DNA of 64,000 nt, taken from assembly GCA_965199675.1 (NCBI GenBank), contig CBDATI010000044.1:2793-66792 (forward strand), given 5' to 3'. The translations under genes were made by a program, and so were the position numbers. The stretch is from Vicinamibacterales bacterium. Lineage in GTDB: Bacteria > Acidobacteriota > Vicinamibacteria > Vicinamibacterales > UBA8438. Numbering within the stretch: the first letter of the stretch is position 1; each line of letters opens with the position of its first letter. The notes below the pieces were generated by a model. The model had not been told where the DNA came from, ran no database searches, and saw only the letters and a list, made by a program, of their open reading frames with translations. Positions 19,687-48,570 of this stretch are shown in pieces.

Positions 19687-21657
19687 TCACGGCAGCGCGA
19701 AAGCAATCAGCTCGCCTTGGTGGGTCCCGCCGCCCACGGCCAGCACCAGATACTGCCGTCCGTTCAGCAGGTAGGTCATCGGCGAACCGGTCTGGGCGGC
19801 GGGCAGGTAGACCGCCCCCCGCTCCTCCCCCGTCGCCTTGTCGTAGGCGCGCAGCATGGCCCCGCGCACGCCGGACGGCGTGGTGAACGTCCCGCCCTCA
19901 CCGCTGATGACGAGAGTCTTCGTCGTCAGGGTGCCGATGCCGCCGGAGCTGCCGCCGGCGCCTCCGGTGCGGCCGGTGCGCGGAATGTCGAGGCCGCGCA
20001 GGGCGGGATGGTTGCGCACGAAGTCGGGGGTCTCGCCATGCGCGATCTGCCACACGATCTCCCCGGCGTTCAGATCGATGGCGGTGATGCGACCCCACGG
20101 CGGCTTCATCATCGGCAGGCCCCGCACGGTGGGCGGGCGCAGTCGGCCGCTGACGTAGTCCATGTCCGACCGGGCGGGATCGTTGACGAGGCCTATCGCC
20201 CGGTTGAGGGTGTGGGAGTACAGGTACAGCATGCCGGTCTCGGGATCGAACGAGCCGCCCGGCCAGTTGGCGCCGTTGGGCACGAACAGGGTCGCGAGCA
20301 GGCCGTCCTGCCCTCGCACGATGGGCGGCGTGAACACCGGCCCGGTGCGGTACCGCGACGCGATCTCGAGGGCCTCCGCGTGCAGCTCGGGGGTGAAGTC
20401 GATCAGCTCGTCGAGGGTGAACCCCTGCCGTTCGAACGGCAGCGGCTTCGTGGGGAACGGCTGGGTCGGCGCATACCACTCGCCCGGGACGTTCCCCGCC
20501 GGCACCGGCCGCTCCTCGATGGGCCAGACCGGCTCGCCGGTGACCCGGTCGAACACGTACACCCACCCCTGCTTGGTGGGCTGGGCCACCGCCGCAATCT
20601 CGCGTCCGTCGACGGTGATGTCGACGAGGATCGGCGGACACGGCACGTCGTAGTCCCAGATGGGGTGGTGCACGAACTGGAAGTGCCACAACCGCTCGCC
20701 GGTCTCGAGGTCGACGGCGACGAGGCTCTCCGCGAACAGGTTGTCGCCGGGCCGGTGGCCGCCGTAGTAGTCGCCGGTGGGGATCTCGATCGGGAGGTAG
20801 GCGATGCCGAGCGCCTCGTCGACGGTCAGGTTGGTCCAGATTCCGGTGTTCCCGGTGTAGACGGCCGAGTCGTTCAGCCACGTCTCGCGCCCGAACTGGC
20901 CGGGCCGGGGAATGGTGTGGAAGATCCACCGGCGCTCGCCGGTGCGGGCGTCGTAGCCGCGGATGTAGCCCTTGACGTTCTCACGGCTCGGCGGCGATCC
21001 GCCGGAGCGGTGGGAGGCCCCCACGATGACCACGTCGCGGGCGACGACGGGAGCGCTGTTCCACCCGATCTCGCCGGTCAGGGGATCGATGTACTGGTCG
21101 TTGTCACGCTTGAGGTCGACGATGCCGTCGACGCCGAAATCGGGCACGGGCCGCCCCGTCCGGGCGTCGAGTCCCACGAGCTGATAGCCGATGGTGACCA
21201 GGTAGATGCGCTCGTCGCCCGCGCCGTCGGTCCAGTACGCGACCCCGCGCCCCGACATGCGGCGGATGGCGTTGGTCCCCCGCTGCCCCTCGTCGAGCCG
21301 ATAGACCCACAGCAGCTCGCCGGTGGCCGCGTCCAGCGCCACGACGTTGCGGCGGCTGCCGGCGGTGGCGTAGAGCACACCGTCGACCATCAGGGGCGTG
21401 GCCTGGTAGTTGAAGTCGGGGAACGGCCCGAGGTTGGTGGTGCGGAACCGCCACTGCACCTCGAGGTCGTCGAAGTTGCCGCCGTCGATCTGGTCGAGCG
21501 GCGCGTACCGGGTGCTGCCGAGGTCGCCGCCGTAGGTCCGCCACTCTCCGTCGGCCGCCCCGTGCTGGGCGAAGCTCGTGGGCGCTCCCCCGAGCAGGAC
21601 CATCGCCGCCACCGCCGCAAGCGCCCCCGCGCCGCGCACATTCACCTGTCGTGACAT
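19687..21657 (-). CDS. Exported PQQ-dependent dehydrogenase, glucose-dehydrogenase-like
   Basis: WRTYGGDLGSTRYAPLDQI, QATPL, HHPIWDYDVP, KPPWGRITAIDL. Confidence 0.88.
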   Translation of the reverse strand: MSRQVNVRGAGALAAVAAMVLLGGAPTSFAQHGAADGEWRTYGGDLGSTRYAPLDQIDGGNFDDLEVQWRFRTTNLGPFPDFNYQATPLMVDGVLYATAGSRRNVVALDAATGELLWVYRLDEGQRGTNAIRRMSGRGVAYWTDGAGDERIYLVTIGYQLVGLDARTGRPVPDFGVDGIVDLKRDNDQYIDPLTGEIGWNSAPVVARDVVIVGASHRSGGSPPSRENVKGYIRGYDARTGERRWIFHTIPRPGQFGRETWLNDSAVYTGNTGIWTNLTVDEALGIAYLPIEIPTGDYYGGHRPGDNLFAESLVAVDLETGERLWHFQFVHHPIWDYDVPCPPILVDITVDGREIAAVAQPTKQGWVYVFDRVTGEPVWPIEERPVPAGNVPGEWYAPTQPFPTKPLPFERQGFTLDELIDFTPELHAEALEIASRYRTGPVFTPPIVRGQDGLLATLFVPNGANWPGGSFDPETGMLYLYSHTLNRAIGLVNDPARSDMDYVSGRLRPPTVRGLPMMKPPWGRITAIDLNAGEIVWQIAHGETPDFVRNHPALRGLDIPRTGRTGGAGGSSGGIGTLTTKTLVISGEGGTFTTPSGVRGAMLRAYDKATGEERGAVYLPAAQTGSPMTYLLNGRQYLVLAVGGGTHQGELIAFALP

Positions 21658-22746: not shown

Positions 22747-24171
22747 ATGCCTGCATCGAGCTGCCGTTGGTTCGCGGCCGGCCTGACCGCCGCCGCCATC
22801 GCCCTGACCGCCGCGCCGGCCGCGGCCCAGACCAGCAGCGAGGCGGACGCCGTCACCTACCACCGGGACATCGCGCCCATCTTCGAGCGGAGCTGCCAGC
22901 ACTGCCACCGCCCCGAGTCGGTGGCGCCGATGTCGCTGCTGACCTACGAGGACGTGCGGCCCTGGGCGCGGTCCATCAAGTACCGCACCGGGCGGGTCGG
23001 CAAGCCGGACGTGATGCCGCCGTGGTACATCGAGAAGGATGTCGGCATCCAGGACTACAAGGGCGACATCTCGTTGAGCACCGACGAGATCGCGCTCGTC
23101 GCGGCGTGGGTCGACAGCGGCGCCCCGCGCGGCGAGCCCGTCGACCGTCCCGCCGTGACCCGCGTCGTCGACGCGTCGGGCTGGCAGATCGGCGAGCCGG
23201 ACCTCATCGTTCGGTCCCCGGAGGTCGAGGTTCCGGCGACAGCCCCCGACTGGTGGGGACCGATGGGCGAAACCGAGACCGGCCTCACCGAGGACCGCTA
23301 CGTCTCGGCCATCGAGATGCGCGAGTTGAGCACCTACGAGGGGCCGCCCGAGCGCGACACCATCGGTGGGCTCTACGTCATCCACCACCTCGTCATGCTG
23401 CCGGTCGGCCCGGACGGCAGGCCGGTCGACGAGGCCGGCTTCTGGCCGGTCCACGAAGTGGGCCGCAACCCCGACGTCTTCCACCCCGACGCCGGCAAAC
23501 TGCTGAAGGCGGGCTCGAAGGTCCTCTTCCCCTCCGCCCACCTGCACTCGAACGGACGCCACACCCGCGCGCAGCTCGAGATCGGGTTCAAGTTCCACCC
23601 CGAGGGGTACGAGCCATCGCGGACGGTGCAGATCATCGGTCCCGCCACCGTCGAGCTCGACATCCGGCCGATGGAGGCCAACCAGAAGTTCGAGGCGTTC
23701 AGCACCCTGATGGAGCACACCAAGATGATGGTGTACGAGCCGCACATGCACGCGGCGGGGGTGCGGATGTGCCTCGACGCGATCTGGCAGAACAACGTCG
23801 AGACCCTGAGCTGCGCTGGCTACAACCACAACTGGGTGCGGGTGTACACCTTCGAGGACGACGCGGCGCCGCTGCTGCCGCGGGGCACCATCCTCCGCAT
23901 CAGGGGCTACTTCGACAACACCCCGACCAACCCCAACGTCTCCGATCCGCGGAACTGGTCGGGCCTCGGCCACCGCTCGATCGACAACATGATGATCAAC
24001 ATCGGCCAAGCGGTGTCGCTGACCGACCAGGAGTTCGCGGACGAGATGGCGGCGCGGCGCGACCGCCTCGGGCTCGCCCCTGGAGAGACGGTCATCGGGT
24101 GCCCGCTGTGCGGCTACCCCGATCCGTCCGAGCTGGTGCCGGCCGGGGCCGCCGACACCGAGGGCCAGTAG
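22747..24171 (+). CDS. Exported c-type cytochrome fused to a copper type II (PHM/DBH-like) monooxygenase (copy 1)
   Basis: Signal peptide; CQHCH and MPPW; VIHHLV, AHLH, PHMH, DNMM. Confidence 0.8.
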   Translation: MPASSCRWFAAGLTAAAIALTAAPAAAQTSSEADAVTYHRDIAPIFERSCQHCHRPESVAPMSLLTYEDVRPWARSIKYRTGRVGKPDVMPPWYIEKDVGIQDYKGDISLSTDEIALVAAWVDSGAPRGEPVDRPAVTRVVDASGWQIGEPDLIVRSPEVEVPATAPDWWGPMGETETGLTEDRYVSAIEMRELSTYEGPPERDTIGGLYVIHHLVMLPVGPDGRPVDEAGFWPVHEVGRNPDVFHPDAGKLLKAGSKVLFPSAHLHSNGRHTRAQLEIGFKFHPEGYEPSRTVQIIGPATVELDIRPMEANQKFEAFSTLMEHTKMMVYEPHMHAAGVRMCLDAIWQNNVETLSCAGYNHNWVRVYTFEDDAAPLLPRGTILRIRGYFDNTPTNPNVSDPRNWSGLGHRSIDNMMINIGQAVSLTDQEFADEMAARRDRLGLAPGETVIGCPLCGYPDPSELVPAGAADTEGQ

Positions 24172-24173
24172 CC

Positions 24174-25124
24174 ATGGCGAGCACGACGCAGACGCAGAAG
24201 CCGCGGGGGGCGGGAGCGGCCGTCGGCTCCGTCGCCCTGCTGGCCGCGACCATCGTCGCCACCCCGGTCACGGTTTCTGCGCAGAATCCGGCCGAGGCCG
24301 AGGACCGGTCGGGGCGCGAGCTCAGCATCTCGCCCGCCTACGAAGGCTGGGAGAGGAACGACGACGGTTCGTTCAACCTGGTCTTCGGCTACATGAATCG
24401 AAGCTGGGACCCGGCCGAGATCCCCATCGGCCTCGACAACCGGATCGAGCCGGGCAACCCGGACCGCGGCCAGCCGACGCGATTCCAGCCGCGGCGGAAC
24501 CGGCACGTCTTCCGCATCCACGTCCCGGCCGACTTCGGCGATCAGGAGCTGGTGTGGACGCTCGTCCGCCGCGGCGAGATCGAGCGCGCCTACGCGACCC
24601 TGCATCCCGACTACTTCCTCGACGACATCGCGATCATGAACAACAACGGCGCCGGCGGGCCGGCCGGCGGCGCCTACAACATCTTCGGCAACCGGCGGCC
24701 GGAGCTGACAGTCGACGACCTGTCGGTGCGCCGCACCACCGTCGGCGACCCCGTCGTCCTGCAGGCGCGCGCCACCGATGACGGCGTCCCCAGAACACGG
24801 AACATGCCCGCCCCGCGCATCGGCGCCACCCGCATCGGCGCCGGCACCCCGAACAGCGCGAGCGGCCTGCGCGTGGCCTGGATCGTCTACCGCGGGCCGG
24901 GCGCGGTCACCTTCGACCCGCCGCAGTTCAAGGTCTGGGAGGACTATCGAGCCGGCGCCGACTCGCCGTGGGCGCCGGGCTGGAAGACGCCGGAGCCGCC
25001 CGAGGACGGGACGTGGGTCGTCGAGGCGACCTTCCACCGGCCCGGCCGCTACGTGCTGCGCGCTCTCGCCCACGACGGCGGCCTCTCGACGCACCAGGAC
25101 GTGACCGTGGCGGTCGGCCCGTAG
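24174..25124 (+). CDS. Exported partner protein with C-terminal Ig/PKD-like domain (copy 1)
   Basis: PAYEGWERNDDGSFNLVFGYMNR, DRGQPTRFQPRR, ATFHRPGRYVLRALAHDG; starts 2 nt after the upstream stop. Confidence 0.8.
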   Translation: MASTTQTQKPRGAGAAVGSVALLAATIVATPVTVSAQNPAEAEDRSGRELSISPAYEGWERNDDGSFNLVFGYMNRSWDPAEIPIGLDNRIEPGNPDRGQPTRFQPRRNRHVFRIHVPADFGDQELVWTLVRRGEIERAYATLHPDYFLDDIAIMNNNGAGGPAGGAYNIFGNRRPELTVDDLSVRRTTVGDPVVLQARATDDGVPRTRNMPAPRIGATRIGAGTPNSASGLRVAWIVYRGPGAVTFDPPQFKVWEDYRAGADSPWAPGWKTPEPPEDGTWVVEATFHRPGRYVLRALAHDGGLSTHQDVTVAVGP

Positions 25125-46265: not shown

Positions 46266-47558
46266 ATGAACATCCGCGTCAGAACCCTCGGTTCCGGCTC
46301 GCTCGGCGTCGTCGTCGGCGCGTTGCTCGCGGTGGCGGCCCTGCCCGCCGGCGCGGCGGCGCAGGACCAGGAGGTCACGTTCACCCGCGACGTGATGCCG
46401 ATTCTCCAGGAGTCGTGTCAGAGCTGCCATCGGGAGGGCGACATCGCCCCGATGTCGCTGATGACCTACGAGGAGACCCGCCCGTGGGCGCGGTCGATCC
46501 GCGACAAGGTGGAGACCCGCACCATGCCGCCCTGGTACATCGACCCCAACGTGGGCGTCCAGGGCTTCAAGTACGACCGGTCGCTGAGTCAGGCGGAGAT
46601 CGACACCATCGTGGCCTGGGTCGACGCCGGCGCGCCGCGCGGCAACCCCGAGGATCTGCCGCCGCCGCGGCAGTTCGCCGACCGCGACATGTGGCACATC
46701 GGCGAGCCCGACTGGATCGTGCCGATTCCCGAGCCGTTCACGGTGCCGGCGGAGGGGGCCAACTGGTGGGGCGACCTGTTCTCACCGACCGGACTGACCG
46801 ACGACCGCTGGATCAAGGCGGTCGAGACCAAGCCGTCGGCCGAGGGCTTCCCCGTGGTGCACCACGCGGTGACCCGCGTACAGGACTCCGAGGAATCGGA
46901 CGAGGGCGACTTCCTGAACGAGTACGCCCAGGGGAAGAACGGCGACATCTTCCCGCCGGGGACGGGACGCCTCGTCAAGGCGAACTCGGTCATCCGCTTC
47001 AACATGCACTACGCGTCGGTGGGCCGCGAGATCACCGACCGCACCAGCGTCGGGCTGCAGTTCTACCCCGAGGGCGAGGAGCCCGAGAAGGAGCTGTTCT
47101 CCCGCGCTCTGGCCCAGAACTACGACCTCGACATCCCCGCGGGCGCGGACGAGGTGCGGCACGACAGCTACCACCCGTTCACCAACAACGTGCGGCTGAC
47201 CGGGTTCCAGCCCCACCTGCACAACCGCGGCAAGCGGCAGTGCATCGAGGCGATCCTTCCCGACGGGAACACCCAGACCATCAGTTGCGCCAACTGGGAC
47301 TTCGGCTGGCACATCGTCTACAACTACGCCGACGACTCGCAGCCGCTGCTGCCCAAGGGCTCGTTCCTGCACACCATCACCTGGCACGACAACTCGACCG
47401 GCAACCGCTGGAACCCCGACCCCGACAACTGGGCGGGCTTCGGCCAGCGGTCGAGCGACGACATGTCGTTCACGTGGACGAGCTACTACGAGCTCGACGA
47501 CGAGGAGTTCGCGGCGGCGGTGGCCGAGCGCGAGGCCATGAACGCCGACGACGACTAG
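46266..47558 (+). CDS. Exported c-type cytochrome fused to a copper type II monooxygenase (copy 2)
   Basis: SD AGGAGG; signal peptide; CQSCH and MPPW; VVHHAV, NMHY, PHLH, DDMS. Confidence 0.82.
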   Translation: MNIRVRTLGSGSLGVVVGALLAVAALPAGAAAQDQEVTFTRDVMPILQESCQSCHREGDIAPMSLMTYEETRPWARSIRDKVETRTMPPWYIDPNVGVQGFKYDRSLSQAEIDTIVAWVDAGAPRGNPEDLPPPRQFADRDMWHIGEPDWIVPIPEPFTVPAEGANWWGDLFSPTGLTDDRWIKAVETKPSAEGFPVVHHAVTRVQDSEESDEGDFLNEYAQGKNGDIFPPGTGRLVKANSVIRFNMHYASVGREITDRTSVGLQFYPEGEEPEKELFSRALAQNYDLDIPAGADEVRHDSYHPFTNNVRLTGFQPHLHNRGKRQCIEAILPDGNTQTISCANWDFGWHIVYNYADDSQPLLPKGSFLHTITWHDNSTGNRWNPDPDNWAGFGQRSSDDMSFTWTSYYELDDEEFAAAVAEREAMNADDD

Positions 47559-47658
47559 TCCCGGACGTCGCCGCCCTGCCGGGCGGCGGTGCCCGCCCGT
47601 CCAACCTCTGCAGGGGTCTGCGCCGTATCCGCGGCGCAGACCCCTGGAGTCAGAAGCG

Positions 47659-48570
47659 ATGACCATACGCACCCTTCAACGCGTCGCGATGGCGTGCGCG
47701 GCGGCGGCCCTGCTCGCGTCGGCCGCCCCACCCCTCGCGGATGCCCAGATCCGCTACGACCGGGGCCAGAACGTGGCTCCCGTCTTCGAAGGCTGGGAGC
47801 GCAACCCGGACGGCACCTTCAACATGGTGTTCGGGTACATGAACCGGAACTACCAGGAGATGCCGGAAGCGCCGGTCGGCGCCGCCAATTCGTTCGAGCC
47901 GGGCGCGGCCGACCGCGGCCAGCCGACGCGCTTCTACCCCCGGCGCCAGCAGTTCGTGTTCCGCGTGCAGGTGCCGGCCGACTGGGGCGAGCAGGATCTC
48001 GTGTGGACGCTGACCACCAACGGCCGCACCGACAAGGCGTTCGGCCGGCTCTGGCCGGCGTGGGAACTCGACGACGGCGTGATACGGGCCAACCGGGGCA
48101 TGGGGCTTCAGGGGGCCCCCGCCGACAACCAACCCCCGTCCATCGCCATCCCCGGCGGCGACGAGCTGACGGTGACCCTGCCCGACACGCTGACGATCAC
48201 CGCGGTGGTCGGCGACGACGGCATCCCGGGGCCCCGGCCGCGCCCCGCGTCCCGTGACGACGACCCGCAACGGGCGGCCCGTGACGCCGCCGATCGCGCC
48301 CGGCGGGCGAGCCGACCCCACCCCACGAACCAGGCCGTCGTGCAGGCGAGGGTCGCGGGCGAGACGGGCCTAGGCATCACCTGGATCCACTACCGGGGAC
48401 CGGGCCGCGTGCGCTTCGACCCGCAGACCGTCTCGGTCGAGGGCGGCCGGGGCGGCCAGGTCGAGACCACCGTCACGTTCACCGAACCCGGCGCCCACGT
48501 GCTGCGCGCCTACGCCGACGACTCGATCAACACCACGCCGATCGACGTCACGGTGACCGTGACGGAATAG
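47659..48570 (+). CDS. Exported partner protein with C-terminal Ig/PKD-like domain (copy 2)
   Basis: PVFEGWERNPDGTFNMVFGYMNR, DRGQPTRFYPRR, TFTEPGAHVLRAYADD. Confidence 0.82.
   Translation: MTIRTLQRVAMACAAAALLASAAPPLADAQIRYDRGQNVAPVFEGWERNPDGTFNMVFGYMNRNYQEMPEAPVGAANSFEPGAADRGQPTRFYPRRQQFVFRVQVPADWGEQDLVWTLTTNGRTDKAFGRLWPAWELDDGVIRANRGMGLQGAPADNQPPSIAIPGGDELTVTLPDTLTITAVVGDDGIPGPRPRPASRDDDPQRAARDAADRARRASRPHPTNQAVVQARVAGETGLGITWIHYRGPGRVRFDPQTVSVEGGRGGQVETTVTFTEPGAHVLRAYADDSINTTPIDVTVTVTE

Follow-up and report, generated by a model that had tools for sequence, protein, structure and literature searches.

A secreted two-domain beta-sandwich protein as the probable dedicated subunit of a cytochrome c-fused clade of bacterial PHM/DBH-type copper enzymes

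For the textbook animal enzymes PHM and DBH, we know of no case in which either has a separate protein subunit. Among the systems with which such a subunit may be compared, PAL folds as a beta-propeller of six blades and has a Zn-His site, the tyrosinase caddie helps transiently with copper loading and export, and MbnP is the substrate of MbnH and binds copper afterwards. Here we analyzed computationally a 64,000-nucleotide stretch (the window) of contig CBDATI010000044.1 from a Vicinamibacterales bacterium, whose host genome comprises 5.3 Mb at 71% G+C. The window carries two cassettes, each with a gene for a PHM/DBH-type copper enzyme followed by a gene for a protein that we call the partner (Table 1). 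We consider it probable that the partner is a secreted, cofactor-less and non-catalytic subunit of two domains, dedicated 1:1 to one cytochrome c-fused clade of these enzymes, with the first domain (pN) docking and the second (pC) adapting; the association between partner and enzyme is in itself more likely than this full reading.

The two partners of the window, P0001 and P0002, are 38% identical over ~300 residues, which is their whole mature length (BLASTP, E = 2e-53). A first-pass annotation had noticed two motifs common to both open reading frames, and these were confirmed letter for letter at the coordinates given in Table 1: the first reads PAYEGWERNDDGSFNLVFGYMNRS in P0001 and PVFEGWERNPDGTFNMVFGYMNRN in P0002, and the second DRGQPTRFQPRRNRHVFRIHVPADFGDQELVWTL and DRGQPTRFYPRRQQFVFRVQVPADWGEQDLVWTL, respectively. 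This similarity is not due to chance, since the family comprises 2819 representatives at 50% clustering (E ≤ 1e-3). In an alignment of 74 sequences, composed of paralogues from the same genome, loci from other genomes and database homologues, the motif residues correspond to near-invariant columns (P54, E57, G58, W59, N62, D64, G65, F71, G72, Y73, N75 and R76, followed by D97, G99, Q100, P101, T102, F104, P106, R107, R108 and, further on, W128). The signal peptides assigned earlier to both partners are borne out by the sequences, with a basic n-region, an Ala/Leu/Val h-region and cleavage between VSA and Q after residue 36 in P0001 and between ADA and Q after residue 29 in P0002. The AlphaFold2 (AF2) model of P0001 agrees, with predicted local distance difference test scores (pLDDT) below 50 over most of residues 1-44 and block means of 44-58 in this region.

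The neighboring enzyme carries a haem domain with a near-invariant CxxCH motif (C50, C53, H54) and M90, and a core in which H213, H214, H265, H333 and H335 are invariant and M415 is at least 90% conserved. This ligand pattern, HH..H / HxH..M, is that of a CuH (H,H,H) and a CuM (H,H,M) site. The AF2 model of enzyme 1 (P0003; pLDDT 84.5) retrieved DBH or PHM structures as all of its 31 best matches in the PDB (Foldseek, E 4.5e-10 to 1e-5). By sequence, the similarity is marginal (profile against DBH, E 0.016), and Pfam gave no match to the PHM/DBH domain of the enzyme. The label "copper enzyme" is thus justified by the modelled fold together with the ligand pattern. Beyond the core, P0003 has a confidently modelled amphipathic helix at residues ~427-441, with the consensus L-(T/D)-D-E-E-(F/Y)-x4-A-x-R. 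In enzyme 1 and its orthologues this helix is followed by a conserved G-C-P-L-C-G (P0003 residues 452-455, window positions 24100-24111; consensus GCxxC), which is absent from enzyme 2 and could provide the enzyme 1 orthologue group alone with a thiol-disulfide or metal site.

Partner and enzyme genes are tightly linked. The host genome contains ~17 partner paralogues and ~24-26 enzyme paralogues, and 15 of the 17 partner copies adjoin an enzyme copy on the same strand. In other genomes the enzyme lies directly upstream of the partner in 76 of 80 loci, drawn from Vicinamibacterales and further Acidobacteriota, from Gemmatimonadota and Longimicrobiales, and from two gammaproteobacterial metagenome-assembled genomes; in an independent set of 80 metagenome loci an enzyme gene is adjacent in 67 of the 70 that could be assessed.

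The phylogenetic distributions of the two proteins are clearly non-independent, as expected from the association that the first-pass annotation had proposed. A full-length partner was found in 25 and the enzyme in 60 of 251 Acidobacteriota genomes, and all 25 partner genomes carry the enzyme; among 121 Gemmatimonadota genomes, for which the match lists were not saturated, the partner occurs in 15 and the enzyme in 21, again with the enzyme present in every partner genome. In the latter phylum, 27 partner matches pair by position with 27 enzyme matches, all of which extend to at least position 422 of the 427 in the model. Ten enzyme matches ending at or before position 413 have no partner; the exception to the rule is one that ends at 421 and is also without a partner. 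The segment missing from the shorter matches is the C-terminal amphipathic helix. In the host genome, likewise, the helix is present in 14 of 14 intact partnered enzymes and absent from 7 divergent solo enzymes. Two further solo enzymes do carry it, and they are matched in number and in clade by orphan partner genes elsewhere in the genome, so that the count becomes 17 partners to 17 helix-bearing enzymes. This suggests that the two solo enzymes and the two orphan partners form two pairs working in trans. The helix appears to mark a partner-associated enzyme clade, and is a candidate docking element.

Paralogous pairs also diverge together. Pairwise distances among partners correlate with those among their adjacent enzymes at r = 0.94 (103 pairs), a value inflated by shared species history; within the host genome alone, where only paralogy contributes, r = 0.68, a value reached by none of 2000 permutations. 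The cassettes therefore duplicate and diverge as units.

In many independent samples the two proteins are joined in a single polypeptide. A search with the partner part of a 665-aa representative, restricted to candidates of at least 366 aa, yielded 117 proteins, which were sorted with domain hidden Markov models (HMMs) into three fusion topologies and a remainder (Table 1). The fusions have a single N-terminal signal peptide and plain linkers, and two were confirmed as single open reading frames on contigs of 77 kb and 563 kb. Their domain orders mirror the two gene orders found in cassettes, and no other fusion partner of the partner family comes close to the enzyme in frequency. The topology in which the whole enzyme is inserted into the partner, as read from the domain order, requires the two to pack together. 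Three candidates did not hold up: P0258 and P0304 were rejected as frameshift artefacts, and so was an 812-aa frame of the host genome (L090, C59:231743-234181), in which the partner retains a signal peptide of its own and the frame of the enzyme is lost at its 3' end. The last ~20 enzyme codons of this cassette are out of frame, reflecting either a pseudogene or an assembly error.

Structural modelling of the partner from the 74-sequence alignment produced a rigid tandem of two beta-sandwich domains (mean pLDDT 88, predicted template modelling score 0.82). In P0001 a disordered N-terminus is followed by pN (~50-145), a short helix-containing linker and pC (~176-316), the strands of which, at 177-315, have pLDDT above 95 in most blocks and ~79-83 in the insertion loops. 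Where a beta-sandwich-like C-terminal tail had been proposed from the sequence, the model does place a sandwich, which is one of two and not a tail alone. A PAL-like beta-propeller lyase, already doubted at that stage, is excluded by these two Ig-like (immunoglobulin-like) sandwiches and by the lack of a conserved His triad. The partners were also correctly described as lacking a haem or copper motif: neither has a CxxCH, and none of the 53 conserved columns (9 invariant and 44 at ≥90%) holds a His, Cys or Met.

Similarity searches retrieved little beyond the general fold class. Pfam and NCBIfam scans of both partners gave no match at E ≤ 1, except for a sub-threshold PKD match in P0002 (PF00801 / PF22352; 11.2 bits against a gathering cut-off of 23.5, E 0.37); P0001 gave no PKD match in Pfam at E ≤ 1. 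The best hit of sequence and profile searches against the PDB was a 60-residue beta-sandwich stretch of GH97 (E 0.009), which is not meaningful. Foldseek against the PDB returned only generic tandem-Ig structures (among them titin Z1Z2, myomesin and sialidase linker domains; template modelling score ~0.2), and the fold therefore offers no functional lead. An origin of the partner as a duplicated enzyme domain was ruled out by profile-profile comparison, in which partner and enzyme are unrelated. The partner fold, as modelled, is Ig-like and without a catalytic lead.

The two domains behave differently in evolution. Among paralogues of the host genome pN has a mean identity of 50%, compared with 35% for pC, in which insertions reach 46 alignment columns. 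The pC HMM matches 12 PKD repeats in the protein P0388. About 65 clusters consist of pN only (131-211 aa); in two lineages such genes overlap the start codon of the enzyme by 4 bp, and the enzyme there has the helix. In partner forms of ~240-255 aa, pN is followed by a PKD domain detectable by Pfam in the position of pC. Extended forms include P0296 (86 member sequences; L101-L103 6001-7473), a partner with an extra C-terminal cytochrome c and ~170 aa more, directly upstream of which lies a complete haem-bearing enzyme. Two others are P0333, a partner with FG-GAP/VCBS repeats, and P0287, with a C-terminal region of 300 aa of no known type. Given these pN-only, PKD-replaced and extended forms, pN appears to be the constant part and pC an exchangeable adaptor. 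In addition, large surface proteins of 690-1480 aa (P0136, P0144, P0184, P0200, P0204, P0229, P0235 and P0260) contain 5-7 tandem pN-like domains along with DUF11 or SpaA-like domains and no enzyme; they share with the partner the signature DG-F...FGY-N-N and DRGQPT-F-PG, while positions such as EGW and PRR are specific to the partner. No Pfam model covers pN, including in the tandem-array proteins; pN is an autonomous domain absent from Pfam.

These observations can be combined into a working model. Enzyme and partner would be exported separately through the Sec pathway, before assembly, because each has its own signal peptide and because attachment of haem c requires unfolded export; they would then assemble in the periplasm. 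There, pN may serve as the constant docking core, probably together with the C-terminal helix of partnered enzymes, as their correlated occurrence suggests, and pC as a variable adaptor: some forms lack it or have a plain PKD domain in its place, and others have it enlarged in its loops or extended by a further cytochrome c. pC may tune substrate access or selection in each paralogous cassette, and a substrate-presenting role of the partner is plausible. Adjacency across distant taxa, a nested and 1:1 distribution and natural fusions all point to a dedicated subunit.

Several considerations weigh against this reading. The enzyme occurs without a partner in 35 of the 60 enzyme-positive Acidobacteriota genomes, so the enzyme fold does not need a partner in general. 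The correlation between helix and partner could reflect shared ancestry of a single clade. Because the same pN signature is found in the enzyme-free tandem arrays, the motifs would mark a fold and not necessarily an enzyme-binding surface. Ig-like domains are promiscuous fusion partners, which makes the fusion argument weaker than it is for enzymes. Finally, the role of pC in substrate specificity is pure inference, and we hold it to be less likely than the subunit reading itself. A wider proposal is possible but doubtful: that the pair is the first example of a very large class of copper hydroxylases, heterodimeric and periplasmic, which a fused cytochrome c would link to the respiratory chain and whose specificity, cassette by cassette, would be set by the cofactor-less Ig-like subunit. 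With its 15-20 cassettes, a genome would then possess an oxidative toolkit resembling that of the P450 enzymes. On an alternative reading, hydroxylation of an invariant aromatic residue in pN by the enzyme would give rise to a new cofactor derived from the protein itself.

The surroundings of the cassettes yielded no third linked gene: among 83 neighbor proteins at 26 diverse loci, 121 Pfam families were matched and none more than three times. A YVTN propeller, a dihaem cytochrome and an S9 peptidase near cassette 1 were considered as a conserved third gene and dismissed, as they are absent at other cassettes. Genes for pyrroloquinoline quinone (PQQ)-dependent dehydrogenases adjoin several cassettes or fusions in unrelated genomes; in the host genome, one lies within 5 kb of 7 of 15 cassettes, compared with 3.5 expected (P ~0.03), an enrichment that is weak and absent from the cross-genome census of the 83 neighbor proteins. 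This proximity may point to a common redox setting in the periplasm, or simply follow from the abundance of such genes in the host. The two cassettes of the window also differ in their spacing. In cassette 1 the partner ATG lies 2 nt past the TAG stop of the enzyme and is preceded by GAGGG, and in cassette 2 the spacer forms perfect long hairpins at ~47562-47595 and 47608-47648 (minimum free energy -66.9 kcal/mol, z = -6.2), neither of them followed by a T-run. The hairpins were rejected as a dispersed repeat, since their stems are not dispersed in the host genome. Coupling of partner expression may therefore differ between the 2-nt gap and the hairpin spacer.

Table 1. Positions and composition of the features discussed. 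Plain numbers are positions in the window; other locations carry the handle of their contig or locus.
Feature	Location	Strand	Description
Enzyme 1 (P0003, 474 aa)	22747..24171	+	signal peptide, CxxCH cytochrome c, PHM/DBH-fold two-copper core, C-terminal amphipathic helix, CPLC tail
Partner 1 (P0001, 316 aa)	24174..25124	+	open frame; signal peptide, pN beta-sandwich, short helix linker, pC PKD-like beta-sandwich
Predicted Sec signal peptide, partner 1	24174..24281	+	residues 1-36, cleavage between VSA and QN; read from sequence
pN domain, partner 1	24321..24608	+	residues ~50-145; AF2 strands 52-141; conserved core, both shared motifs inside
pC domain, partner 1	24699..25121	+	residues ~176-316; variable PKD-like sandwich, large loop insertions
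Enzyme 2 (430 aa)	46266..47558	+	architecture as enzyme 1
Spacer enzyme 2 / partner 2	47559..47658	+	100 nt; two strong hairpins; GGAG ~10 nt before ATG
Partner 2 (P0002, 303 aa)	47659..48570	+	open frame; signal peptide 1-29, pN ~37-133, pC ~160-303
Solo helix-bearing enzymes	G000:C28:32583-33983; C8:314826-316403
Orphan partner genes	C8:65894-66751; C22:58391-59242
Fusion pN-pC-cytc-PHM (type A)			39 clusters
Fusion pN-cytc-PHM-pC (type B)			15 clusters; whole enzyme in place of first pC strands
Fusion cytc-PHM-pN-pC (type C)			6 clusters; P0304 clear, P0362 possible frameshift artefact
Other proteins from fusion search			remainder of 117; partner alone or with other extensions
Examples of vicinal-Cys subfamily	L093 (G000:C8:121448-122179); L094 (G000:C8:65894-66751)		also P0301, P0305, P0341, P0346
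PQQ-dependent dehydrogenase genes	window 19687-21657; L101 28-2121; L105 4637-6865, 10569-12734; L106 5859-7763

Other explanations of the partner were weighed against the same evidence. The best surviving, which we still hold to be unlikely, is that it acts as a docking adaptor for electron transfer, sitting at the haem domain and not on the substrate side, where it would recruit or position an external donor of the periplasm (a c-type cytochrome, for instance, or a PQQ dehydrogenase). The well-populated P0296 form, with its extra cytochrome c beside a complete enzyme, and the PQQ dehydrogenases flanking several cassettes and fusions would fit such a role, as would a vicinal Cys-Cys-Trp insertion (consensus GNFGYHCCWTN) in the last pC loop, conserved in one partner subfamily. 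This insertion is found in 39 of 39 type-A fusions, is enriched in cassettes with the partner gene first and is lacking in both window copies; its cysteines could form a vicinal disulfide with redox activity or else bind a metal. However, the window partners and most of the family have no conserved residue capable of redox chemistry, the extra-cytochrome form is a minority, and the PQQ enrichment is weak and does not recur in the census of neighbors across genomes.

The first-pass annotation had left it undecided whether the partner is a small subunit, a substrate-presenting protein or a maturation factor; the first gains from adjacency, 1:1 distribution, co-divergence and fusions, and a general maturation factor loses ground. 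Transient help in copper or haem loading or in folding, in the manner of the tyrosinase caddie, would be in keeping with the operon shared with a copper enzyme and has a precedent in caddie-type proteins, but we regard it as very unlikely. The partner shows no conserved His, Met or Cys with which to handle copper, and by the standards of the copper chaperones PCuAC and CopC and of the caddie it has no conserved ligand column and no Pfam or NCBIfam match. Moreover, 17 copies, each co-diverging with its own enzyme, are more than a general chaperone would require; the association looks lasting, given permanent fusions in three topologies, one of them an insertion; and both proteins have Sec signal peptides, so that hitchhiking through the twin-arginine (Tat) pathway is inapplicable.

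Equally improbable, in our view, is that the partner is a protein substrate or cofactor precursor resembling MbnP, with the enzyme hydroxylating a conserved Trp, Tyr, Asn or Pro of pN and thereby creating the functional partner. Adjacency at 1:1 and co-divergence would fit an enzyme-substrate pair equally well, and pN has unusually many invariant polar and aromatic residues (W59, Y73, N89, Q100 and W128). Yet the same residues recur in the tandem pN arrays, which have no enzyme in the polypeptide, and so look structural; partner C-termini are not Gly-extended, unlike PHM substrates; and insertion of the enzyme inside the partner fold suggests a structural unit. That a common secreted Ig-like protein lies beside the enzyme gene by chance, as the abundance and promiscuity of Ig-like domains and the generic fold matches might allow, is extremely improbable and is contradicted by adjacency across three phyla, 1:1 copy numbers, nested distribution, co-divergence and ~60 fusion clusters.

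The dedicated subunit therefore remains our preferred reading. A full-text literature search found no paper on the partner family, and its database homologues are all named "hypothetical protein". New here are the single-chain fusions in three topologies, the 1:1 correspondence between partners and helix-bearing enzymes, the minimal form with pN only, the lack of a third conserved gene and pN as an autonomous domain. Members of this bacterial branch of the PHM/DBH fold number in the thousands, with as many as ~17 partnered copies in one genome, and no described family accommodates its obligate-looking partner. Should the partner be a subunit, attempts to express the enzyme by itself would probably fail or give misleading results. 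Single-chain constructs for structure and assay already exist in the natural fusions, and the pN-only form and the helix specific to partnered enzymes give direct handles on the interface. For domain annotation, pN is defined as a new autonomous domain that occurs in tandem in surface proteins and is missing from Pfam.

Each of the known systems resembles the partner in part. PAL is the classical companion of the PHM core in animal PAM, but the partner consists of two Ig-like sandwiches without conserved His. The tyrosinase caddie (Streptomyces MelC1/ORF378) is also small and has its gene next to that of a copper oxidase, which it binds; unlike it, the partner lacks conserved metal ligands, comes as one copy per paralogous enzyme and is permanently fused in ~60 clusters. 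The MbnP-MbnH pair likewise unites a haem enzyme of the periplasm with a beta-sandwich partner that is adjacent and co-distributed, although it shows no homology to the pair described here. With the PKD and Ig-like families (PF00801, PF22352) pC shares the kind of beta-sandwich, and its shorter relatives pass the Pfam threshold; the window pC domains fall below it and belong to a family with insertions up to the length noted above, and pN matches no Pfam family. A close parallel is the DOMON domain of DBH (PDB 4ZEL; PF03351), which is also a non-catalytic beta-sandwich accompanying a PHM/DBH-type two-copper core, and in some bacteria the partner, too, is on the same polypeptide as the enzyme. 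DBH heads the fold matches of the enzyme, yet the first 50 of the partner do not include 4ZEL, and Pfam gives the partner no DOMON match at E ≤ 1. The partner is moreover mostly a separate gene and has two domains that can stand N-terminal to, C-terminal to or around the enzyme. It is thus an accessory beta-sandwich module analogous, and not homologous, to DOMON.

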